DNA from: Escherichia phage HK3
Direction: 5' to 3' (one strand)
Sequence record: PP526765
Length of the DNA stretch: 64,000 nt
Shown in pieces: positions 5,233 through 35,922 of the stretch; positions within the stretch are counted from its first letter, which is position 1; each line of letters starts with the position of its first letter. The notes beneath the pieces were generated by a model that ran no database searches, was not told the origin of the DNA, and saw only the letters and a program-made list of their open reading frames with translations. A program made the position numbers and the translations under genes.

Positions 5233-5577
5233 ATGGACAACCTTTCCATATGGTTTAACAAGAAACCTGTACAACCGAAATACTTGCAAGTTGCCTATAC
5301 AGATATCCTTGAAGTTCTCGGTAAAGAAAAGTTTGAAAAGTTTTGTGAAGGCATCTACAATCATCACTGCCAATTTGCTACAAAAGAAGGTATGTTTGTC
5401 ATAGAACAGTTCTTTGGCAGAGACCCAGATGACTACGAAGAGATTAGCTTTGTAATGAAATATATGATAGAGTATATTGAAAATCGTGGATTCGAAGTTA
5501 ATCCTGAATTTTATGAGCACGAGGGTGTACCTTTAGCAAAAGGTTTTGATGGAATACTTGTTAGCTGGACTTGGTGA
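5233..5577 (+). CDS. hypothetical protein (114 aa)
   Basis: ORF track. Confidence 0.5.
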   Translation: MDNLSIWFNKKPVQPKYLQVAYTDILEVLGKEKFEKFCEGIYNHHCQFATKEGMFVIEQFFGRDPDDYEEISFVMKYMIEYIENRGFEVNPEFYEHEGVPLAKGFDGILVSWTW

Positions 5578-5918
5578 AAATTATGAAAATCAAAGAAATG
5601 AACATCAATATTGTCTTAGAAGAACGATGGGAGAACATCAAGAAGCCTGAAAATGGTCATAAGTTCCTCAACAAAATCTTAGTAGCAGCTAAAGAAGAAC
5701 TGACTGGCAAGGTTGCAGCAGCAATCACAATAAAGGTCTGTGTAAAAGGTCTTCCAGACAATCACCAATTTGCACTTGACGAGTTTAAAGAAAGCTTCTA
5801 CAATCCAAACAAACAGATGCTTGAAAGTAACTTTGCAGTATCTACAAGCATCGTTCATGACAGAAGCTTTATCCTTTACAAGAATATGAGAGGTGAGTCA
5901 TGCAAGCATATTGGATAG
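5571..5918 (+). CDS. hypothetical protein (115 aa)
   Basis: ORF track; overlaps previous stop (coupled). Confidence 0.5.
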   Translation: MVKIMKIKEMNINIVLEERWENIKKPENGHKFLNKILVAAKEELTGKVAAAITIKVCVKGLPDNHQFALDEFKESFYNPNKQMLESNFAVSTSIVHDRSFILYKNMRGESCKHIG

Positions 5919-9752: not shown

Positions 9753-10301
9753 ATGAAGAAGTTGATTCTAGGTTTGTGCTTAATGTTTACAGCACACTTA
9801 TCTTATGCAGTTGACTGCCCAGAGCTATCAATTAGCCAAAAAGTAAACATGTTAAAAGCTTACCAGTATGGTGAGAATAATATGGGTAAAGGTTGGGGTA
9901 TCACTCTAGCTGCTATAGCCTTACAAGAGTCAGAGTTAGGTCTGAAGGTAGAGAATAAAAAGACCCATGACTATGGTATCTTCCAGAATCACTTGAAGAC
10001 TGTTGTAAAGCGTAACAAAATCAGTCCTAATGTGGCTAAAAAGAAACTCTTAAAAGATTTTGACTATGCTGCAAAGGAAACACACAAAGAGCTTGAATTT
10101 TGGACTAAGGTACACGGTCAACCAAAGTCAAAGAAGACTTTACAAAAAGTTTTAGCATCATATAATGCTGGGTATTCGTACAAAATTCCTAAAGCTAAGA
10201 AATACTCTCAAGATGTCTATAACAATATGAAAGTCATCGCTCAATGTGAATTTGCAACAAACATTTCTAAGGTAAATCATGAAAAAATTAAGAAAGTCTG
10301 A
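9753..10301 (+). CDS. secreted lytic-transglycosylase-like protein
   Basis: N-terminal signal peptide (MKKLILGLCLMFTAHLSYA); ..ALQESELG...DYGIFQN resembles the SLT-domain catalytic E-S plus GLMQ-like motif. Confidence 0.45.
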   Translation: MKKLILGLCLMFTAHLSYAVDCPELSISQKVNMLKAYQYGENNMGKGWGITLAAIALQESELGLKVENKKTHDYGIFQNHLKTVVKRNKISPNVAKKKLLKDFDYAAKETHKELEFWTKVHGQPKSKKTLQKVLASYNAGYSYKIPKAKKYSQDVYNNMKVIAQCEFATNISKVNHEKIKKV

Positions 10302-10974
10302 TGAAGTGCTGTGTCATGCTTACGACTTGCATCCTCATGAGTTAGGTCTTGATTCCTGTATATGGACTCCAGAACAGTGCAGGGATTTTGAAGACACTGC
10401 AAGAGAGGTTGTATGTTCACTTGAAGAGTTCCACACATCAGAACCAATTGTGAACGTTGTGGACAAAGAGACTGGACAATCTCTAGGTGTAAGACGTGAC
10501 AGTTTAGTCATAGTCAATAAAGACCTTGTAGAAAAAGGTAACCTCATCTTAGCAGATATTGATGGTGTTCTTACAAATTTTAATCACGAAGATTGCTCAA
10601 CGGAATTGACTGATGGGTCATTCTCACAGTACACTAATCTTCTTGACTCTGTAAGAGCAAAACCAACGTATGTTTTTAGTATTATTGATGCAATTGCTAA
10701 TCATGCTGCCATTGGACTCTTGACAGCGAGAGGTGAATCTCAGAGAATACCTACTGAGATGTTTTTAAGGCATAACATAGAGCACGATTACATGCTTTTT
10801 ATGCGTGGTTTTGGAACTAACTCTATAAATGCAGAAAGTTTGAAAGTTAGGATGATTCAGTCTTGCATTCTTCCTTACTTTGATATAGTATGTTTTATAG
10901 AAGATACAGAGAAGAATGTTCAGAAGGTAAACAGAATCCTTCCGCACATTAAAACTATGTTAGTAAAACATTGA
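10279..10974 (+). CDS. HAD-superfamily hydrolase, 5'(3')-deoxyribonucleotidase-like
   Basis: HAD motif I DIDGVL (ILADIDGVLTNF) and downstream T/D motifs; true start may be internal. Confidence 0.4.
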   Translation: MKKLRKSDEVLCHAYDLHPHELGLDSCIWTPEQCRDFEDTAREVVCSLEEFHTSEPIVNVVDKETGQSLGVRRDSLVIVNKDLVEKGNLILADIDGVLTNFNHEDCSTELTDGSFSQYTNLLDSVRAKPTYVFSIIDAIANHAAIGLLTARGESQRIPTEMFLRHNIEHDYMLFMRGFGTNSINAESLKVRMIQSCILPYFDIVCFIEDTEKNVQKVNRILPHIKTMLVKH

Positions 10975-29338: not shown

Positions 29339-30754
29339 ATGAGCAAGTTATTTAAACATGCGCACCTTCATGCAGGTCGAACTGAAAATGGTGCTGTAAA
29401 CCATACTTCATCAATGTCTGCTCTGGTAGACTTCTACAAAGCCGCTGGTTCAAGCCGTAGCAATGTAGAAATCTTACCAGACCTGTTCTACAAAGCTTTG
29501 CGTGAGGATGTTGATGTTGCAGTTCGTATTTTACTGCATATGCGAGATGTACGAGAAGGTATGGGCGAGCGTAAAGCTTTCCGAACTGTTTTGCTTCAAG
29601 CGATTGAAGATAAGGTTTTAGAACCTACACAGGTTCTTCGCATTATGGATAAGATTGCAGAACTTGGTCGTTTTGATGACTTCAAAATCTTTGTAGGTAC
29701 TCGTTTTGAGACAGACGCCTTCAAACATTTAGAAGCAGCATTACTAGACCCTGCAACAGCAGGTTTAGCAGCTAAGTGGTTGCCACGAGTAAAACCACGC
29801 CACAAACAGTTTGTAAAACGTTTCTGCAAGTTTGCAAACTTAAGTGAGAAGGAGTATCGCACACTGTTGTCTGCACTATCTGATACGGTTGAGCAAAAAA
29901 TCTCTGCTAATGAGTTTGGTAAGATTGACTACAGCAAGATTCCTTCACTAGCTGCTGCACGTTACCAAAAACTCTTTAACCGTAAAGATGGTGAACGTTA
30001 CAAAGCTTACATCGAGTCGCTCTCAAAGGGTGAGGCTAAGATTAATGCTGGTGCTGTTTACCCATACGATGTGATTAAATCTATTAAGTATGGTAATGCA
30101 GATGTTGCTAATGAGCAGTGGAAAGCACTTCCAAACTGGATGGCAGAAGGTGAAAACATCTTGTGTATGACTGATGTTTCAAGCTCAATGTCTTGGGTGA
30201 ATCTTGGTTCAATCACTGCCCTTGATATTGGTGTATCACTTGCTTTGTATGTAGCAGAACGCAATACTGGTTGCTTTAAAGATGAGTTAATGGTTTACTC
30301 AACAAACCCTCACTTCATTGAACTGAGTGGTGATTTACGAAACCGTCATCGTCAGGTGATGCGTCACGTTGAATATGGCTCAACTAACTTACAAGCAGCT
30401 TTTGACCGTATTCTTGAAATAGGTAAGAGAAACAACTTGACTCAGAAAGATATGCCAAGTAAGCTTATTATCTTCTCTGATATGGAGTTTAATCAGGTTG
30501 ATGGTGCAAATGGTCATACAAACTTTGAAGCAATTCAGAGTAAGTACAAAAAAGCCGGATACGAAATGCCACAACTAGTATTCTGGTACTTAGCAAACCG
30601 TAATGGTACTTGCGAAGTATCTGTTAAGGATAATGGTGTAGCAATGGTATCAGGGTTCTCTCCAGCCACTTTAAAAGCTCTACTTGGTGGTGAGAAGTTT
30701 GACCCAATCAGCGTAATGCTCAAAGCAGTAATGATTGACCGTTATATCTGGTAA
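29339..30754 (+). CDS. vWA-domain protein with MIDAS motif; candidate Ro60/TROVE-like (Rsr-like) RNA-binding protein
   Basis: C-terminal vWA signature ILCMTDVSSSMS (DxSxS); about 470 aa with helical N-terminal region; sits directly upstream of the tRNA/ncRNA cluster; TROVE assignment is inference. Confidence 0.4.
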   Translation: MSKLFKHAHLHAGRTENGAVNHTSSMSALVDFYKAAGSSRSNVEILPDLFYKALREDVDVAVRILLHMRDVREGMGERKAFRTVLLQAIEDKVLEPTQVLRIMDKIAELGRFDDFKIFVGTRFETDAFKHLEAALLDPATAGLAAKWLPRVKPRHKQFVKRFCKFANLSEKEYRTLLSALSDTVEQKISANEFGKIDYSKIPSLAAARYQKLFNRKDGERYKAYIESLSKGEAKINAGAVYPYDVIKSIKYGNADVANEQWKALPNWMAEGENILCMTDVSSSMSWVNLGSITALDIGVSLALYVAERNTGCFKDELMVYSTNPHFIELSGDLRNRHRQVMRHVEYGSTNLQAAFDRILEIGKRNNLTQKDMPSKLIIFSDMEFNQVDGANGHTNFEAIQSKYKKAGYEMPQLVFWYLANRNGTCEVSVKDNGVAMVSGFSPATLKALLGGEKFDPISVMLKAVMIDRYIW

Positions 30755-30772: not shown

Positions 30773-30801
30773 TTGACAATGTGTTTGATACCCTTTAATA
30801 T
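30773..30801 (+). promoter_or_regulatory. promoter TTGACA-N17-TAATAT with flanking inverted repeat GGGTAT / ATACCC
   Basis: read directly. Confidence 0.5.
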
Positions 30802-30863: not shown

Positions 30864-30893
30864 TTGACAACCACTAAAAAATAATGTTAAAGT
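30864..30893 (+). promoter_or_regulatory. promoter TTGACA-N18-TAAAGT for the tRNA cluster
   Basis: about 25 nt upstream of the first tRNA; flanking inverted repeat ACCACT / AGTGGT. Confidence 0.45.
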
Positions 30894-30919: not shown

Positions 30920-30996
30920 CTCTGTTTAGCTCAGCTTGGTAGAGCGTTCCGTTTGGGGCGGTAAGGCCGGAGGTTCAAGTCCTCCAACAGAGACCA
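30920..30996 (+). tRNA. tRNA-Pro (anticodon UGG)
   Basis: 7-bp acceptor CTCTGTT/AACAGAG, D-stem GCTC/GAGC, T-arm GGAGG-TTCAAGT-CCTCC, encoded CCA. Confidence 0.6.
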
Positions 30997-31003
30997 AATT
31001 AAT

Positions 31004-31081
31004 GTTCCAGTAGACAAAATGGTATAGTCACCACTCTTTCAAAGTGGATATTTGAGGGTTCAAATCCCTTCTGGAACGCCA
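31004..31081 (+). tRNA. tRNA-Glu (anticodon UUC)
   Basis: perfect acceptor GTTCCAG/CTGGAAC, anticodon stem CCACT/AGTGG, loop CTTTCAA, T-loop TTCAAAT, CCA. Confidence 0.6.
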
Positions 31082-31087
31082 GTTTTG

Positions 31088-31162
31088 ACAGAAGACCAAT
31101 TACAGCAAACTTAATCTTATTCATCTGAAGGTAAATCGGACAAAGAAGAGATTTGGTCTGGT
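31088..31162 (+). ncRNA. structured spacer element a (conserved 5' CAGAAGACCAATTACAGCAA, 3' TTGGTCTGG)
   Basis: 7-bp long-range stem AGACCAA/TTGGTCT; one of four sibling elements. Confidence 0.45.
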
Positions 31163-31172
31163 CATTAAGAAT

Positions 31173-31249
31173 TGCGGGTATAGAGAAAGGGCGTCTCACA
31201 TGTCTCATTAGCATGGTATCGGCAGGTTCGACTCCTGCACCCGCCTCCA
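31173..31249 (+). tRNA. tRNA with CAU anticodon (elongator Met or Ile-lysidine type)
   Basis: loop CTCATTA, D-stem GAGA/TCTC, T-arm GCAGG-TTCGACT-CCTGC, CCA; mismatch at acceptor pair 1:72. Confidence 0.5.
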
Positions 31250-31255
31250 AATTTA

Positions 31256-31320
31256 CAGAAGACCGTTTACAGCAATATTTATTAAATTTTTAGCGGAAAA
31301 ATTGAAAGATACGGTCTGGT
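31256..31320 (+). ncRNA. structured spacer element b (5' CAGAAGACCGTTTACAGCAA, 3' ACGGTCTGG)
   Basis: stem AGACCGT/ACGGTCT; GT/AC replaces the AA/TT of elements a and c. Confidence 0.45.
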
Positions 31321-31333
31321 AATACTAAACATG

Positions 31334-31410
31334 GTTAGGAAGCACATAAGGTATGTGCGGTCGCCTGTTAAGCGAATGGCACAGGGTTCGAATCCCTGAC
31401 TAACCGCCAA
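31334..31410 (+). tRNA. tRNA-Asn (anticodon GUU)
   Basis: D-stem GCAC/GTGC, loop CTGTTAA, T-arm CAGGG-TTCGAAT-CCCTG, CCA. Confidence 0.55.
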
Positions 31411-31481
31411 ATTTAGGAGAGAAGCGATTGCTCACCGATTTGTAAGGTGCAAGTCCTTAGCCTGAATAGAATAATAAAATG

Positions 31482-31569
31482 TGTCGTTATCCCGTAGATG
31501 GTAGCGGTGGGGACTGTAAATCCCTTGTCATTGAGACTCGGTAGGTTCGACTCCTACACGGCACACCAA
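31482..31569 (+). tRNA. tRNA-Tyr (anticodon GUA), long variable arm
   Basis: acceptor GTGTCGT/ACGGCAC, anticodon stem GGGGA/TCCCT, loop CTGTAAA, 88 nt, T-loop TTCGACT, CCA. Confidence 0.6.
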
Positions 31570-31630
31570 TTTTGAGAGGGCTATTTAGCCCCTCCCTTAA
31601 AGAGTTCTTACGAGTACCCTTTAAAGGAGC

Positions 31631-31704
31631 AGAAGACCAAATACAGCAAGTTACTTAAAATTTCAAGCCAATTCAATTTTGAAAAATTTAAAACTTGGTC
31701 TGGC
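31631..31704 (+). ncRNA. structured spacer element c (5' CAGAAGACCAAATACAGCAA, 3' TTGGTCTGG)
   Basis: stem AGACCAA/TTGGTCT. Confidence 0.45.
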
Positions 31705-31717
31705 TCAACAAATTTAC

Positions 31718-31848
31718 AGAAGACCGTTTACAGCAAAACTTAAACAATCTATTTCTCGGTAAAGAAAAGGTGAAGGTTCGATTCCTTCACTCGGCAGATG
31801 TCGAGTTGGTGTAATGGTAGCACTTAAGATGATAAACAACGGTCTGGT
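31718..31848 (+). ncRNA. structured element d with circularly permuted tRNA-like module (candidate YrlA-like Y RNA)
   Basis: order: 5' stem strand AGACCGT (31722) - T-arm GAAGG-TTCGATT-CCTTC (31773-31789) - acceptor-like hairpin ACTCGGC-AGAT-GTCGAGT (31790-31807) - D-arm GTGT-AATGGTA-GCAC (31810-31824) - 3' stem strand ACGGTCT (31840-31846). Confidence 0.5.
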
Positions 31849-31849
31849 A

Positions 31850-31985
31850 ATTATCTTTGCAGTAGCTTATGTGGCTAATTATATCGTCCCATGAGTGCCG
31901 ATGAATTTCCTTAGCATGATTCTAGATTAGCTTAATAGGAAATGACTCTACAGACCCTTTAGCAAGGTCTGCGTAGGTTACTGCA
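31850..31985 (+). ncRNA. element enclosed by a perfect 16-bp inverted repeat (AATTATCTTTGCAGTA ... TACTGCAAAGATAATT) around 104 nt
   Basis: arms at 31850-31865 and 31970-31985; interior has further hairpins (AGACC...GGTCT); no ORF. Confidence 0.5.
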
Positions 31986-31999
31986 AAGATAATTTAATA

Positions 32000-32075
32000 G
32001 AAGTGTAGCAGAATGGTGATGCGGCAGACTTTTAATCTGATAGGTGATGGGTTCGAATCCCTCCACTTCTACCAA
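32000..32075 (+). tRNA. tRNA-Lys (anticodon UUU)
   Basis: perfect acceptor AGAAGTG/CACTTCT, loop CTTTTAA, T-loop TTCGAAT, CCA; T-stem only 3 clean pairs. Confidence 0.5.
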
Positions 32076-32079
32076 TATG

Positions 32080-32156
32080 GTTCAGTCGCAGATAAGGTAA
32101 TGCAGGGGTCTCATAAGCCCTATGAATGTGGGTTCGATTCCCATCTGAGCCTCCAA
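32080..32156 (+). tRNA. initiator-like tRNA-fMet (anticodon CAU)
   Basis: anticodon stem-loop GGGCTCATAACCC with three G:C pairs closing the loop; T-arm GTGGG-TTCGATT-CCCAT; CCA. Confidence 0.55.
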
Positions 32157-32158
32157 TG

Positions 32159-32234
32159 CTGTGAAAGCACATATGGATGTGCATTCGGCTGATAACCGAA
32201 AGGAAGAAGGTTCGAATCCTTCTCACAGTACCAA
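32159..32234 (+). tRNA. tRNA-Ile (anticodon GAU)
   Basis: D-stem GCAC/GTGC, anticodon stem TTCGG/CCGAA, loop CTGATAA, T-arm GAAGG-TTCGAAT-CCTTC, CCA. Confidence 0.65.
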
Positions 32235-32249
32235 TTTCAATAAAGTTGT

Positions 32250-32278
32250 TGACATTGAGATGTGACCACTTTATAGTA
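32250..32278 (+). promoter_or_regulatory. internal promoter TTGACA-N17-TATAGT inside the tRNA cluster
   Basis: read directly. Confidence 0.55.
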
Positions 32279-32481
32279 ACCTTAGTTTTCGTTGCGTAGC
32301 GTCTATTTTGCAAATTTAAAATAAATGCAAACGACAATGTTTTTCTGGCAGTAGCTTGATAGGCTAAACACCAGTGAGGTCTTCCAATCCCTCATCAAAG
32401 AATTTGGCGTACTAGCCCACGGTATGATTAATAAGGTGGGCATCTTTAAGGGTTTTTTAAGAGAGTCTTTAAAGATTAATG

Positions 32482-32558
32482 CACCCTTAGTTCAACTGGA
32501 CAGAACAAATGACTTCTAATCATTAGGTTACAGGTTCGAATCCTGTAGGGTGTGCCAA
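32482..32558 (+). tRNA. tRNA-Arg (anticodon UCU)
   Basis: D-stem GTTC/GAAC, anticodon stem AATGA/TCATT, loop CTTCTAA, T-arm ACAGG-TTCGAAT-CCTGT, CCA. Confidence 0.65.
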
Positions 32559-32700
32559 ATAGTTAGCAGATTGCTTAGACGACCTTATCGGGTCTCCGTG
32601 TAGGGAGGTGGTCTGTATCTCATGTTTTCCAGAACATGTAAATAATCTGAGAAGGGGCTTTACAGTGTTGAGATAATACGGTAAGCTTCGAATTATAGTA

Positions 32701-32783
32701 TGGGACGATGTTAAGACTCTAAGGCATGAGCAACGGCTTCCAACACCGTTTCAAAGGGATTCAACTCCTCCGTCCCATGCCAA
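32701..32783 (+). tRNA. atypical tRNA-like gene (possible anticodon CCA, Trp); irregular D and T arms
   Basis: perfect 7-bp acceptor ATGGGAC/GTCCCAT plus G-CCA, but T-stem has only 3 clean pairs and the D-region is 26 nt. Confidence 0.35.
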
Positions 32784-32796
32784 AGTCTTATTAGGG

Positions 32797-32886
32797 GTAG
32801 GTAGCGGCTAATGGTAGCCAAACTGTCTTGAAAACAGTTGCCACTGTAGAGATACGGTGAGGGTTCGACTCCTTTACTTACCGCCT
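32797..32886 (+). tRNA. tRNA-Ser (anticodon UGA), long variable arm
   Basis: anticodon stem ACTGT/ACAGT, loop CTTGAAA, 20-nt variable arm, T-loop TTCGACT; CCA not fully encoded. Confidence 0.55.
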
Positions 32887-33040
32887 AATAAGATTTAAAG
32901 CCAAGCTTCATTCGGATGTTGCTTTGGTATCCCTCGTGTATTGTCGTACACACTGATAAAGCACCTAGTAGGTGTCACGGAGAAGAGATAATATCAAGCT
33001 CTCCAAAGGTTCTAGTCACCGGATTAAACAAGACTATGCA

Positions 33041-33063
33041 AAGACCTGTTTAGGTCTTTTTAG
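33041..33063 (+). terminator. short hairpin AAGACC-TGTTTA-GGTCTT followed by TTTTT inside the tRNA cluster
   Basis: read directly; may instead be a processing signal. Confidence 0.35.
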
Positions 33064-33141
33064 AGGGCTTCTAAGGTTATTACAGCTTGTTGTGGAACCT
33101 TGTTGCTTAGGTTCTTAGAAGTTCTCTAAAAAGATTTAATG

Positions 33142-33218
33142 CACCTATAGCCCAACTGGTAGAGGCAGCAGACTTAGAATCTGCTCAGTGTGAGTTCGAA
33201 TCTCTCTAGGTGTACCAA
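33142..33218 (+). tRNA. tRNA with anticodon UAG (Leu by anticodon; short variable arm)
   Basis: 6-bp anticodon stem AGCAGA/TCTGCT, loop CTTAGAA, T-loop TTCGAAT, CCA; 77 nt. Confidence 0.45.
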
Positions 33219-33225
33219 ATTAATG

Positions 33226-33301
33226 CAGGTGTAGCAAAATGGTTATGCGGCTGACTCTTAATCAGTAAGACGATGGTTTCAATTCCCTCCACCTGTACCA
33301 G
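33226..33301 (+). tRNA. tRNA-Lys (anticodon CUU)
   Basis: loop CTCTTAA; T-arm paralogous to the Lys-UUU gene; CCA. Confidence 0.45.
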
Positions 33302-33307
33302 ACATTG

Positions 33308-33383
33308 GGGATGTAGTTTACATGGTTAAAACATAAGTTTTGCAAACTTAAGTACAGGGTTCAATTCCCTGCTTCTCCACCAA
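33308..33383 (+). tRNA. tRNA-Ala (anticodon UGC)
   Basis: G3:U70 pair in acceptor stem (Ala identity), D-stem GTTT/AAAC, anticodon stem TAAGT/ACTTA, loop TTTGCAA, CCA. Confidence 0.7.
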
Positions 33384-33389
33384 TTAGTG

Positions 33390-33464
33390 CATCCATAGTT
33401 TAAACGGGAAAATTACAGTCTTCCAAACTGAGGTTGAGGGTTCGATTCCCTCTGGATGCTCCAA
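33390..33464 (+). tRNA. tRNA-Gly (anticodon UCC)
   Basis: perfect acceptor GCATCCA/TGGATGC, loop CTTCCAA, T-arm GAGGG-TTCGATT-CCCTC, CCA. Confidence 0.65.
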
Positions 33465-33470
33465 ATAATG

Positions 33471-33547
33471 CTGCTTTCGTATAATTGGCTATTACACATC
33501 CCTTGTAAGGATGGAAATGCAGGTTCGAGTCCTGTGAGCAGCACCAA
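33471..33547 (+). tRNA. tRNA-Thr (anticodon UGU)
   Basis: anticodon stem CATCC/GGATG, loop CTTGTAA, T-loop TTCGAGT, CCA. Confidence 0.6.
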
Positions 33548-33551
33548 TTCA

Positions 33552-33637
33552 GAGGTCAAGTGAAAGACCGCTGGTGTCAACTGAAGACCGTAACAAATTC
33601 CACGGAGTTGAGTTAGCGGCACAACTTCAGACCTCTT
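33552..33637 (+). ncRNA. structured spacer element closed by AGAGGTC / GACCTCT stem, containing a GAAGACCGT motif
   Basis: 7-bp inverted termini; interior shares GAAGACCGT with elements a-d. Confidence 0.35.
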
Positions 33638-33642
33638 TCATA

Positions 33643-33717
33643 CTCGCTTAGTTTATATGGTAAAACACCACCCTTACAAGATGAAGAAAAAGGTTCAAGT
33701 CCTTTAGTGAGTACCAT
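33643..33717 (+). tRNA. tRNA-Val (anticodon UAC), weak anticodon stem
   Basis: D-stem GTTT/AAAC, loop CTTACAA, perfect T-arm AAAGG-TTCAAGT-CCTTT, CCA. Confidence 0.4.
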
Positions 33718-33718
33718 G

Positions 33719-33796
33719 TTCCAATATCCCAATTGGCAGAGGATGCAAGCTCAAACCTTGTACTAGTGACGGTTCGAATCCGTCTTGGAACACCAA
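33719..33796 (+). tRNA. tRNA with anticodon CAA (Leu by anticodon; short variable arm)
   Basis: perfect acceptor GTTCCAA/TTGGAAC, anticodon stem GCAAG/CTTGT, loop CTCAAAC, T-arm GACGG-TTCGAAT-CCGTC, CCA. Confidence 0.5.
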
Positions 33797-33910
33797 TTTT
33801 GGGAGAGCACTATGAGTGATAAGTCAATAGCAAAAAAGTTTAGAGCGTCATACCTAAACAGACGTAAAAACAAAGATTGTGAAAAACTGTATGGTGTTCT
33901 TGTAGGTAAG

Positions 33911-33986
33911 CAGGATTAGTTCAAATGGATAGAGCAGCAGTCTACGAAGCTGTTAATAGGGGTTCGAATCCCTTATCCTGCGCCAA
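33911..33986 (+). tRNA. tRNA-Arg (anticodon ACG)
   Basis: perfect acceptor GCAGGAT/ATCCTGC, loop CTACGAA, T-loop TTCGAAT, CCA. Confidence 0.65.
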
Positions 33987-34004
33987 TTTTAAGAGGCTAT
34001 TTAG

Positions 34005-34562
34005 ATGAGATATTTGAAGTATGCTTCATGGATTTTCCTAGCTTTGTTAGACCCATTGGCAGCAACCTTAGCAGTTATCTTAGCACCTTTTGTAGTTCCA
34101 TTCTACAGTGAGAAGAAAGGGCACTTACCTTTCGGCTTCAGATGGATGGAGACATATGACAACCCAATTGATGGTGATAAAGGTCATGTTGAACGATGGG
34201 CTAAGATTAGAAAGATTGGTAAGCTTGGTGTCTATATGCAGAGAGTCGGTTGGCTCTGGAGAAACAAAGCTTATAACTTCTCTTACCATGTGTTAGGAAG
34301 AGATGTAAAAGATGTTACTAAGTGGAAAGGTAATATCAACGTAAGCTCTGACCCTGAAGATAATCAGACAGGTTATCTCCTAATGTGGAACAGTAATGCT
34401 TGGGGATTATTCGCTTTTATCCCATCAATTAAAGTCTTTGGTAAACAATTCTACTGGAGAATTTATATTGGGTGGAAACTAAAAAGTGTTGTCCCAGAAG
34501 AAAGAGCATTCTCAAGGGAAAGAGTTATGTTGGCATTCTTTATTCATCCACTGAGAAAGTAA
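34005..34562 (+). CDS. hydrophobic protein encoded inside the tRNA cluster (185 aa)
   Basis: ORF track; AAGAGG Shine-Dalgarno 9 nt upstream; hydrophobic N-terminal helix. Confidence 0.55.
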   Translation: MRYLKYASWIFLALLDPLAATLAVILAPFVVPFYSEKKGHLPFGFRWMETYDNPIDGDKGHVERWAKIRKIGKLGVYMQRVGWLWRNKAYNFSYHVLGRDVKDVTKWKGNINVSSDPEDNQTGYLLMWNSNAWGLFAFIPSIKVFGKQFYWRIYIGWKLKSVVPEERAFSRERVMLAFFIHPLRK

Positions 34563-34570
34563 AGATTTAA

Positions 34571-34646
34571 AGGGGATTAGTTTACAAGGTTAAAACCTCG
34601 GTCTTTGAAATCGAAGAAGTTGGTTCAATTCCAACATCCCCCGCCA
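34571..34646 (+). tRNA. tRNA-Gln (anticodon UUG)
   Basis: D-stem GTTT/AAAC, anticodon stem TCGGT/ATCGA, loop CTTTGAA, perfect T-arm GTTGG-TTCAATT-CCAAC, CCA; A1:C72 mismatch. Confidence 0.6.
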
Positions 34647-34648
34647 AT

Positions 34649-34727
34649 GCTCCATTACTCCAATTGGCAGAGAGGCCAGACTTAAAATCTGTGTTATGTA
34701 TCGGTTCGAATCCGATATGGAGTACCA
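34649..34727 (+). tRNA. tRNA with anticodon UAA (Leu by anticodon; 7-nt variable region)
   Basis: acceptor GCTCCAT/ATGGAGT, loop CTTAAAA, T-arm ATCGG-TTCGAAT-CCGAT, CCA. Confidence 0.45.
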
Positions 34728-34732
34728 AATTT

Positions 34733-34808
34733 AGCGGTATAGCATAACTGGCAATGCAACAGTCTCTGAAGCTGTCTTATTAAGGTTCAAATCCTTATGC
34801 CGCTGCCA
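34733..34808 (+). tRNA. tRNA-Gln (anticodon CUG)
   Basis: D-stem GCAT/ATGC, anticodon stem ACAGT/GCTGT, loop CTCTGAA, T-arm TAAGG-TTCAAAT-CCTTA, CCA. Confidence 0.65.
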
Positions 34809-34839
34809 CTTCTAAGGATTCTTACGAGAGTCCTTAAAT

Positions 34840-34915
34840 GTGGCCTTATCATAAACGGTAATGACCCATGCTGTGAACATGGTCTATACGGGTTCAAATC
34901 CCGTAGGTCACCCCA
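34840..34915 (+). tRNA. tRNA-His (anticodon GUG)
   Basis: D-stem TCAT/ATGA, perfect anticodon stem CCATG/CATGG, loop CTGTGAA, T-arm ACGGG-TTCAAAT-CCCGT, C73, CCA. Confidence 0.65.
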
Positions 34916-34920
34916 ATTTA

Positions 34921-34997
34921 TAGTCCAAGTAGCTTATATGGTTAAAGCGCGTGTCTGAAAAACATGAGAAGAGGGTTCAAATCCCACTGGATTACCA
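34921..34997 (+). tRNA. tRNA-Phe (anticodon GAA)
   Basis: anticodon stem CGTGT/ACATG, loop CTGAAAA, T-loop TTCAAAT; acceptor register uncertain by 1 nt. Confidence 0.5.
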
Positions 34998-35013
34998 ATT
35001 TCAAAGGTGCTTA

Positions 35014-35748
35014 ATGAAAGAGATGACAGAACAAGGTAAGGAGATTTTTAATCTCTTAAAAACTGGTAAAGGGTTTTCTAACCCCCTTATTACTGGTGCA
35101 GCAGTTCTCGGTGGAACCGTAGCTGCCTCTACATCACTTGTAAGCTCTATTAGCTCTGTAACAGACCCTACAATAAAGGATAAACTTATTGCTGCTGGAC
35201 TTACAACAGTTCTGCTTAACAGCTTTACAACGAGTCTGACAAGCACTACAGCAACTACTAAGACCCTAACAGACTATGGTCAAAAATCTATTGATGAGTT
35301 TTCATCACGTATGCAGGTAGCAAAGGGATACTCCAATGTTATGGGTGCAGTAGGAGAACAAGTTGGTTGTACACCATTTAGTGGTATTATGGGTGTTGCT
35401 ACAGAGTATGGTCAAAAAGCTATGGATACAATTAACAGCACACTAGATGGCGTTAATGATGTATTAAGCGACTTACAGGATGCTATTGATAAAGGTCTTA
35501 ATACTATTTCTGATTTAGCTAACCAAGCTGTTAGTAAGATTAATGAAGGTATCTCAAAGATTACAGCTTATGCAGATGAAGTTGTGCAGATGATTGAAGA
35601 AGAAGCTGCCCTTATTGCAGAGTACCTTAAAACGAATATCAATGGGTTCTTAGCAGGTATCTTACCAGACTGGTTTGATGATGCTTGTAAAACTGGTGTG
35701 ATTGACACTATTGCAACACCAGAAATGAAGAACGCATTACAGAAATAA
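35014..35748 (+). CDS. Ser/Thr-rich hypothetical protein (about 244 aa)
   Basis: ATG at 35014 after AAAGGTG; track ORF 34951..35748 would overlap the tRNA-Phe gene. Confidence 0.5.
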   Translation: MKEMTEQGKEIFNLLKTGKGFSNPLITGAAVLGGTVAASTSLVSSISSVTDPTIKDKLIAAGLTTVLLNSFTTSLTSTTATTKTLTDYGQKSIDEFSSRMQVAKGYSNVMGAVGEQVGCTPFSGIMGVATEYGQKAMDTINSTLDGVNDVLSDLQDAIDKGLNTISDLANQAVSKINEGISKITAYADEVVQMIEEEAALIAEYLKTNINGFLAGILPDWFDDACKTGVIDTIATPEMKNALQK

Positions 35749-35749
35749 C

Positions 35750-35842
35750 GGAAGATTAACCCTAAAAGGTAAGGGAGCAGTTTGCTAAACTGCCAGTAGC
35801 TGAGAAATCGGTGTACCAGTTCAAGTCTGGTATCTTCCTCCA
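35750..35842 (+). tRNA. tRNA-Ser (anticodon GCU), long variable arm
   Basis: acceptor GGAAGAT/ATCTTCC, perfect anticodon stem GCAGT/ACTGC, loop TTGCTAA, 21-nt variable arm, T-arm ACCAG-TTCAAGT-CTGGT, CCA. Confidence 0.65.
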
Positions 35843-35846
35843 ATTT

Positions 35847-35922
35847 GAATCCGTGACAGAAATGGCTATGTACCTGTCTGCAAAACAGGTTTATAAGGGT
35901 TCGAGTCCCTTCGGATTCTCCA
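35847..35922 (+). tRNA. tRNA-Cys (anticodon GCA)
   Basis: perfect acceptor GAATCCG/CGGATTC, anticodon stem CCTGT/ACAGG, loop CTGCAAA, T-arm AAGGG-TTCGAGT-CCCTT, CCA. Confidence 0.7.

Follow-up and report, generated by a model that had tools for sequence, protein, structure and literature searches.

This is an account of a structured RNA element, F4, and of the phage system to which it probably belongs. F4 lies in Escherichia phage HK3, a Felix O1-like myovirus (Ounavirinae), within the 64,000-nucleotide stretch of sequence record PP526765 that we analyzed and refer to as the window. It occupies part of the gap between tRNA-Tyr (31481-31568) and tRNA-Lys (31999-32074), in an array of 25 tRNA genes at 30920-35922, all on the + strand (ARAGORN). 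We think it likely that F4 is a Y-RNA-like noncoding RNA of the YrlA type, and that F4 and its paralogues, which share a bulged stem that we call the frame or scaffold, are bound by a Ro60-like protein encoded upstream. Conservation of Y RNAs and Ro60 extends from bacteria to humans, yet little is understood of their functions. By analogy with the known pairs, F4 is probably the partner of a divergent phage Ro60.

A permuted tRNA-like module in a bulged frame

The original prediction, made from the sequence alone, described a circularly permuted tRNA-like module at 31718-31848. The order of parts that it gave is borne out (we find 5' strand, V, T, closed acceptor, D, 3' strand), and every stem it named, namely the closing stem, the T-arm, the closed 7-bp hairpin and the D-arm, is present where it had been placed. 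The unit is slightly larger than proposed, 31714-31851, by virtue of an outer 4-bp stem (TTAC/GTAA) and an AGA/G bulge. Secondary-structure prediction, one of the checks suggested at the time, gives all the arms in the minimum free energy (MFE) fold (z = -2.2 to -2.5) and adds a V-arm-like hairpin and the outer 4-bp stem UUAC/GUAA. Two elements of folding were dropped along the way: the 4-5-bp 'anticodon-like' stem CUUAA/UUAAG of the MFE fold, which is not kept in Mooglevirus-type relatives, and an extended 7-bp T-stem, in which position 48 varies among U, C and A. That F4 cannot be a conventional tRNA was also correctly foreseen; a tetraloop closes the acceptor, no anticodon stem is conserved, and neither ARAGORN nor Rfam calls a tRNA or a transfer-messenger RNA (tmRNA) at F4. 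Searched both at the gathering threshold and at E <= 10, Rfam places no meaningful family on the spacer, its sole match being a 14.9-bit fragment of the tRNA model at the T-arm. ARAGORN finds no tmRNA anywhere in the window, there is no tmRNA match at E <= 10, and no tmRNA tag reading frame was seen in the list of open reading frames (ORFs). A strict descriptor of the architecture matches F4 and nothing else in the 64 kb. Small ORFs do overlap F4, of 39 amino acids on the + strand and 41 on the -, and we set them aside because the substitution pattern is that of a paired RNA.

The 430-nt spacer that carries F4 matched 251 phage records at 84-98% identity, at least 80% of it being covered in 238 of the 251 matching Ounavirinae records; most of these are Felixounavirus or Mooglevirus phages of Escherichia, Salmonella and Shigella. 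For a deeper comparison we seeded a covariance model, R1, on Ounavirinae sequences only and then used it to align 30 homologues from diverse phages. A MAFFT alignment of the distant members proved structurally wrong outside the T-arm, and covariance-model alignments were used instead. Standard pairs occupy 96.1% of cells in the 30-homologue alignment, compared with 61% in shuffles and 36-41% when partners are slid out of register. Changes on both sides occur in 25 of 27 base pairs, spread over all five helices, and none of 500 shuffles reaches the observed values for pairing and covariation. The outer and inner scaffold stems (helices 1 and 2) show both-sided changes in all 11 pairs, between paralogues as well as orthologues. 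The T-arm is paired in 100% of cells, with compensatory changes in four of five pairs and G53-C61 invariant; the D-arm is paired in 98.8%, with three of four pairs compensatory; and in the acceptor-like hairpin all seven pairs show compensatory change. Among close relatives the T- and D-arms do not vary at all, and the same phages carry four unrelated, fully pairing versions of the acceptor-like hairpin: ACTCGGC/GTCGAGT, ACACGTT/GGCGTGT, ACCCTTC/GAAGGGT and GCGATCC/GGGTGGC. Further afield, in a more distant phage contig (L056; such labels are our handles for loci), the T-stem is altered to ACAGG/CCTGT. The V-arm-like hairpin varies in sequence and length across the family, and L052, L068 and L056 have other hairpins in its place. 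The alignment of related phages that the original prediction had called for has thus kept the pairings, with compensatory changes, and the loss of pairing in relatives that would have told against it is not what we see.

The insert is tRNA-like in more than its arms. The tRNA nucleotides U8, A14, G18-G19 and G53-C61 are kept in the family, and positions 15 and 48, which form the Levitt pair in tRNA, covary: among 22 members, seven have G15:C48 and ten A15:U48 (Fisher p = 7e-4), making 17 of 22 compatible with the pair, with both pair types seen. When the permutation was undone in silico and a generic anticodon arm supplied, ARAGORN called all 17 of 17 members tRNAs; in native order it called none of the 17, and with the 3' strands shuffled, six. 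The Levitt covariation and the result of un-permuting the module support a tRNA-like tertiary fold.

What the original prediction did not contain is the rest of the system. The closing stem belongs to a scaffold of which the array has four to five copies, immediately upstream stands a Ro60-like gene, and the canonical Ro-binding motif of YrlA is absent. There are four occurrences of the 5' motif AGAAGACCnnnnACAGCAA in the window (31090, 31257, 31631 and 31718; 0.22 expected), always on the + strand and within the tRNA array. These sites mark four modules, F1 to F4, each of which folds into one bulged helix with an outer 4-bp stem, AGA opposite G, and an inner 7-bp stem. The stems covary between paralogues, the outer one reading UGAC/GUCA, UUAC/GUAA or GAGC/GCUC and the inner one AGACCGU/ACGGUCU or AGACCAA/UUGGUCU. 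Only F4, among the four, has the tRNA-like insert; F2 is kept at the same site in relatives. Across the wider family the consensus is an outer stem, a bulge of 2-3 nt, an inner 7-bp stem of the form 5'-AG.../...CU-3', a nearly invariant unpaired G, and the junction motif (U/A)UNCNGCAA. After the motif the interior holds either V, T, closed acceptor, U8 and D, or a short hairpin. Within the junction motif, 15 diverse members agree without exception at C, G, C and A, and of 48 aligned members nearly all have the motif.

A fifth member is possibly the long multibranched hairpin that adjoins F4. It always contains a minimal frame hairpin, CAGACC-CUUUAGCAA-GGUCUG (31951-31971), which undergoes a compensated change to CAAACC/GGUUUG in Mooglevirus-type phages, and Felixounaviruses have it in two different sequence versions that keep the overall fold. 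It may be a partner RNA of the long-hairpin, YrlB/Yrn2-like type, its membership being inferred.

Features of the window discussed in the text (R1 and R2 are the first- and second-generation covariance models)
Feature	Position	Strand	Remarks
Ro60-like protein gene	29339-30754	+	471 amino acids; Pfam DUF2828 and DUF7788, weak VWA_2; PHROG 850 'RNA-binding protein'
F1, frame-only, between tRNA-Glu and tRNA-Met	31086-31165	+	R2 46.3 bits, E = 3e-7; UGAC-AGA-AGACCAA-UUACAGCAA ... UUGGUCU-G-GUCA
F2, frame-only, between tRNA-Met and tRNA-Asn	31253-31323	+	R2 51.8 bits, E = 2e-8; UUAC-AGA-AGACCGU-UUACAGCAA ... ACGGUCU-G-GUAA
F3, frame-only	31627-31707	+	R2 39.8 bits, E = 7e-6; GAGC-AGA-AGACCAA-AUACAGCAA ... 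UUGGUCU-G-GCUC
F4, complete framed module with tRNA-like insert (probable YrlA-like RNA)	31714-31851	+	138 bases; R1 159.9 bits, R2 125.7 bits, fold, covariation
F4 scaffold, 5' side	31714-31727	+	outer stem UUAC 31714-17, bulge AGA 31718-20, inner stem AGACCGU 31721-27
F4 junction motif UUACAGCAA	31728-31736	+	family consensus (U/A)UNCNGCAA; candidate protein-binding site
F4 V-arm-like hairpin AUCU-A-UUUCU-CGGUAA-AGAAA-AGGU	31747-31771	+	MFE fold
F4 T-arm GAAGG-UUCGAUU-CCUUC	31772-31788	+	
F4 closed acceptor-like hairpin ACUCGGC-AGAU-GUCGAGU	31789-31806	+	7 bp, one G.U, tetraloop
F4 U8-G9	31807-31808	+	
F4 D-arm GUGU-AAUGGUA-GCAC (A14, G18-G19, A21)	31809-31823	+	
F4 scaffold, 3' side	31839-31850	+	inner stem ACGGUCU 31839-45, unpaired G 31846, outer stem GUAA 31847-50
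Long multibranched hairpin adjoining F4	31852-31991	+	140 nt; MFE -51.5 kcal/mol, z = -5.4

A predicted Ro60 fold upstream, and its genetic linkage to the RNAs

The gene that interests us stops 332 nt short of F1 and 960 nt short of F4, on the same strand, and is the orthologue of gp130 of phage Bas63. Sequence searches told us little about it: phmmer against the Protein Data Bank (PDB) found nothing, a profile search against the PDB reached TROVE proteins at E = 2 and through the region of the MIDAS (metal ion-dependent adhesion site) only, and a literature search on DUF2828 turned up nothing relevant. It was fold comparison alone that revealed the relationship to Ro60. An AlphaFold2 model built on 51 homologues has a mean predicted local distance difference test score (pLDDT) of 89.9 and a predicted template-modeling score (pTM) of 0.89. 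When this model was compared with the PDB by Foldseek, the top nine matches were all Ro60, Rsr or TROVE proteins, aligned over their full length with E down to 5.6e-8 and template-modeling (TM) scores of 0.49-0.65; they include Xenopus and human Ro60, Deinococcus radiodurans Rsr and the Ro60 of Thermus phage phiLo (9KOP). Below these nine came vWA domains only. The protein is therefore predicted, on the strength of the model, to have a Ro60/TROVE plus vWA fold, a ring of HEAT repeats followed by a C-terminal vWA domain with a MIDAS motif, whose DxSxS residues D279/S281/S283 are invariant in the 51 homologues. The gene family is found in 709 phage records from very diverse hosts, and its mycobacteriophage members are annotated 'Ro-like RNA binding protein'.

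Does the gene travel with the RNAs? We took from IMG/VR 75 loci (871 kb) around distant homologues of the gene, at 39-48% identity, and searched them with R2, a second-generation covariance model, at a threshold of E <= 0.1. There were 65 matches, in 39 of the 75 loci, many of them abutting the gene, and all 65 lay on the gene's strand (binomial p ~5e-20). The same search of 866 kb of control phage loci gave a single partial match, at a tRNA junction. A strict descriptor told the same story, finding seven stand-alone modules at the distant-homologue loci and one motif-less match in 705 kb of control phage loci. Each of the seven lies on the strand of the gene and has a CAGCA/CCGCA motif following a 5' stem strand that is particular to the locus. 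Our first descriptor (T-arm, hairpin and D-arm) had also caught the junctions of tandem tRNAs, in L067 and L206, which ARAGORN and a requirement for the frame removed. The linkage covers the direction from gene to RNA; the loci of RNAs found by pattern, L034, L056, L057 and L069, end within or near the RNAs, probably at contig ends.

Annotated phage genomes agree with this. In mycobacteriophage Whirlwind (L233) a 65-bit R2 match lies ~100 nt downstream of the Ro-like gene; in Listeria phage cka15 (L234) three frame-only modules stand directly upstream of the gene, with a tRNA array further upstream; and in Campylobacter phage F370 the R2 matches fall between the tRNAs and the gene. A few kb downstream of the cka15 gene are an RtcB-type 'tRNA splicing ligase' and an RNA ligase (L234:7310-8521 and 10081-10455).

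Known relatives, a proposed mechanism and its rivals

The closest known relative is YrlA (Rfam RF02553), partner of bacterial Rsr/Ro60, whose module order was described by Chen et al. 2014 (PMC4201824). Comparison with YrlA was another of the checks originally suggested, and the order of modules in F4 turns out to be exactly that of YrlA. The likeness extends to the tRNA invariant nucleotides and the covarying Levitt pair, to being encoded on the strand of a Ro60-type gene (here Ro60-like by predicted fold) and no more than 4 kb from it, and to shorter paralogues without the tRNA-like part, as in YrlB. The Rfam YrlA model also partly matches a mycobacteriophage member of the F4 family: as a positive control, RF02553 gave a 38.3-bit partial match (gathering score 69) on the tRNA-like core of the Whirlwind RNA, which R2 matches over its full length. 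The class traits of YrlA itself further include binding to Ro60/Rsr in vivo and the modifications pseudouridine-55 and dihydrouridine. Unlike YrlA, the RNAs described here are embedded in a tRNA array in four to five copies, their partner would be a protein of the DUF2828/DUF7788 family, and in place of GNCGAAN0-1G they have the UNCNGCAA junction motif and the conserved AG.../...CU-G bulged stem. Since neither the GNCGAAN0-1G motif nor an RF02553 match is found, F4 is, strictly speaking, not an Rfam YrlA. The search of Chen et al. was confined to genomes with an annotated TROVE domain (PMC4201824), which may explain why phages of the DUF2828 type were missed.

Two phage systems are also close. 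Thermus phage phiLo encodes a Ro60 homologue with two Y-like RNAs beside it, Yrl1 and Yrl2 (PDB 9KOP, 9L5Y), and the protein has been shown biochemically to bind both RNAs and the host PNPase (PMC12135203). The phiLo protein, unlike ours, is a canonical TROVE protein, and its RNAs were recognized through the CGAA motif; tRNA is mentioned twice in that paper, where we saw no tRNA-like domain or tRNA-array context. Bas63 is a Felixounavirus, and a 2024 PhageMaP preprint noted its gp130 as Ro60-like, as a counter to the Ppl defense and as lying upstream of tRNA genes (PMC11482910), so that the gene has the same position, directly before the tRNA genes, in the same phage genus. Its authors speculated that there might be Y RNAs among the genes annotated as tRNAs, and no RNA was identified there (PMC11482910); our candidates are in the spacers and not among the annotated tRNAs. 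Metazoan Y RNAs resemble the framed RNAs in having a bulged stem of the 5' and 3' ends as the proposed protein site, several paralogues per genome and an interior that serves as effector module. They differ in having no tRNA-like domain, and their GGUCCGA/UUGAC helix is absent here.

Taking Rsr/YrlA and the phiLo Ro60/Yrl pair as guides to protein binding, RNA processing and biological role, we suggest how the system might work. The modules would be transcribed together with the tRNAs and released by the tRNA-processing enzymes that cut the neighboring tRNAs. The Ro60-like ring protein would then bind the scaffold (5'-AG.../...CU-G-3' plus UNCNGCAA), and the tRNA-like module would engage tRNA-recognizing factors such as TruB, Dus, RNase P, the CCA-adding enzyme, or an exonuclease, for example PNPase. 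That engagement might tether or gate the Ro60-like protein for RNA surveillance, repair or counter-defense during infection; such a tether or gate role has been proposed for Rsr/YrlA/PNPase and for phiLo Ro60/Yrl/PNPase. YrlA of Mycobacterium smegmatis is cleaved by RNase P and receives CCA in vivo (PMC4201824), and F4, whose acceptor-like stem has the full 7 bp, is for that reason predicted to be cut by RNase P in the same way. A grander proposal, which we hold only tentatively and think doubtful as a whole, is that the framed RNAs and the DUF2828-type Ro60-like protein make up a widespread, unrecognized phage ribonucleoprotein system built into tRNA arrays. The Ro60 ring would be loaded at several sites of the precursor, the tRNA mimic would recruit host tRNA enzymes or nucleases, and the resulting particle would protect or mend the pool of tRNAs, or weaken host defenses that act on RNA, all through a recognition code (AG.../...CU-G plus UNCNGCAA) unlike that of any known Y RNA.

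A number of observations weigh against a Y-RNA-like partner of a phage Ro60. Binding of the RNAs by the Ro60-like protein is something we infer from linkage and analogy only. The likeness of the protein to Ro60 is structural only, belongs to a predicted model, and comes with 12-16% identity; Pfam TROVE (PF05731) does not match it, Pfam giving DUF2828, DUF7788 and VWA_2 only. On the RNA side, the Ro-binding motif GNCGAAN0-1G (or CGAA), found near the 5' end of YrlA, is absent from F1-F4, and RF02553 has no match at E <= 10 on 31560-32010. The remaining 36 of the 75 distant loci are without an R2 match, perhaps because the model is not sensitive enough, perhaps because no such RNA is there. The covariation was counted on an alignment fitted to the structure of the model, and the counts lean towards that structure; the slid-partner control and the explicit stems of individual sequences argue that the signal is real. 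Then there are the isolates that do without. F3 and F4 are both missing in phage ESCO49 (L072), and in L111, which keeps the Ro60-like gene, F4 is truncated (5545-5720) by a natural T-loop-to-T-loop deletion; F4 is therefore dispensable for viability in some isolates. Lastly, gp130 alone, in T7 or from a plasmid, counters Ppl (PMC11482910), and anti-Ppl activity therefore needs no framed RNAs.

What else might the modules be? They could be processing or punctuation elements, structures recognized by RNase P, RNase Z or RNase E or stabilizing the tRNA precursor, and independent of the Ro60-like protein. In HK3 every module does lie between tRNA genes on the tRNA strand, the 7-bp acceptor-like stem is a known RNase P determinant, and M. 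smegmatis YrlA is cut by RNase P. We nevertheless consider this improbable. Frame-only modules lack the tRNA-like part, neither the UNCNGCAA motif nor the bulged stem is a feature of RNase P or RNase Z substrates, and the modules follow the DUF2828 gene even where tRNAs are scarce: L220 has one tRNA in 13 kb, and the Whirlwind RNA is ~100 nt from the gene and 2.7 kb from the sole tRNA. A control array of 26 tRNAs (L067) yielded no more than a single weak, partial match, which falls on a tRNA junction. Phage tRNA arrays are believed to work against defenses that target tRNA, and the mimic might on its own titrate or trigger host tRNA-targeting nucleases or sensors, with the Ro60-like protein unrelated or merely stabilizing. 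The orthologue of the neighboring gene is indeed a defense counter, and the Listeria phage gene sits beside RtcB and an RNA ligase, in an RNA-repair context. We give such a decoy little credence, however, for the mimic lacks the anticodon arm at which anticodon nucleases usually strike, a genome's modules are mostly frame-only, and the linkage is to the Ro60-like gene and not to any defense-related marker. A decoy role independent of the protein does overlap with the Ro60-partner explanation.

Two further explanations take F4 for a tRNA gene of some kind, working or ruined. In the permuted tRNA genes of Cyanidioschyzon merolae and in two-piece tmRNA genes the 3' half (T-arm, acceptor 3' strand) precedes the 5' half, and their transcripts mature to functional RNA with an anticodon arm or tag ORF and dedicated processing signals. 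F4 has the gene order expected of such a gene, T-arm and acceptor before acceptor and D-arm, together with a 7-bp acceptor stem and an A at the discriminator position; and M. smegmatis YrlA is, after all, cleaved and CCA-tailed in vivo. One could imagine the acceptor loop being opened by RNase P and 3' processing, CCA added, and the product aminoacylated and used in translation or tagging. This seems to us very unlikely, as anticodon arm, tag ORF and dedicated processing signals are all lacking in F4 (the 'anticodon-like' stem of the MFE fold being lost in Mooglevirus-type relatives, and ARAGORN and the ORF list offering neither tmRNA nor tag), and the sequence of the acceptor stem varies freely, unlike that of a stem bearing identity. 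A decayed junction of tandem tRNA genes, in which the 3' half of one pseudogene abuts the 5' half of the following one and the acceptor strands are complementary by chance or duplication, is scarcely credible, even though ordinary tRNA-tRNA junctions look alike locally and are caught by simple patterns (L004, L012, L015, L016), and the L067 and L206 matches do straddle two real tRNAs. No tRNA remnant flanks F4, and the same architecture recurs in unrelated phages with different sequences. The original prediction had itself named a decayed pseudogene lacking the closing stem as the outcome that would undo it; the closing stem is there, and it covaries, as do the closed hairpin and the outer stem, where a pseudogene would not hold 96% pairing.

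Surroundings of the RNAs and what they mean

Several observations on the neighborhood deserve recording. Between the Ro60-like gene and the first tRNA are two sigma-70-like matches, at 30864-30893 and 30773-30801 (TTGACA-18-TAAAGT with extended TG, and TTGACA-17-TAATAT). These are consensus matches and no more, and they suggest that the tRNA array may be served by a promoter of its own. At 31569-31626, after tRNA-Tyr, come two small hairpins, including the GC-rich GAGAGGGCUAUUUAGCCCCUC (z = -2.45), which are kept in relatives. The 'tRNA-Asp' annotated under the spacer match in several relatives proved to be an ordinary extra tRNA between tRNA-Tyr and the spacer, not F4. This tRNA-Asp of many relatives (L001:227-303, L002:228-303) is absent at 31568/31569 of the window, and Asp and Trp species are missing among the 25 tRNAs. 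The L111 deletion joins the T-loop of F4 to that of tRNA-Lys and takes out the remainder of F4 together with the long hairpin and the greater part of tRNA-Lys, and T-loop repeats appear to be recombination points in the array.

Elsewhere in the family, some phages have tandem tRNA-like modules: three in L069:2515-3077, five of mixed type in L158:7662-11409, and in L056:8741-8955 a second module that begins at the contig end. The segment between the D-arm and the 3' stem strand, which we call J3, often holds GGUCAAA or GGCAAUAAAA (L166, L168, L170, L179, L183, L220). In Whirlwind J3 (L233:6100-6115) reads GGUCGAAG, matching the canonical YrlA motif GNCGAAG, but on the 3' side. The J3 motif may mark a second point of contact, or be what is left of the canonical motif. 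Upstream of the Whirlwind gene are a band-7-like gene and tRNA-Tyr. The RtcB and RNA ligase arrangement of cka15 resembles the Salmonella rsr-yrlBA-rtcBA RNA-repair operon, and the tRNA array upstream of its Ro60-like gene also holds a match to ROOL RNA (Rfam RF03087) at L234:2928-3479 (90.1 bits against a gathering score of 99.1, E = 4e-17), over which several tiny 'hypothetical protein' coding sequences are annotated.

What does this mean for the biology of these phages? The Ro60-like protein of Felix O1-type phages now has concrete, testable candidates for its RNA partners, and the same pairing of protein and RNA is indicated in hundreds of phages, with hosts that include Escherichia, Salmonella, Vibrio, Listeria, Staphylococcus, Campylobacter and Mycobacterium. 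The RNA family is large, and because both Rfam and tRNA finders miss it these genomes at present carry no annotation of it; it gives an explanation of some of the 'spacer' DNA found in phage tRNA arrays. If the Y-RNA-like reading is right, it would also offer a second, sequence-distinct solution to the interaction between Ro60 and Y RNA, and Bas63 in E. coli provides a genetically tractable system in which to ask what a tRNA-mimic domain is for. The main value of the work, as we see it, is that it brings to light a large RNA family paired with a divergent phage Ro60.

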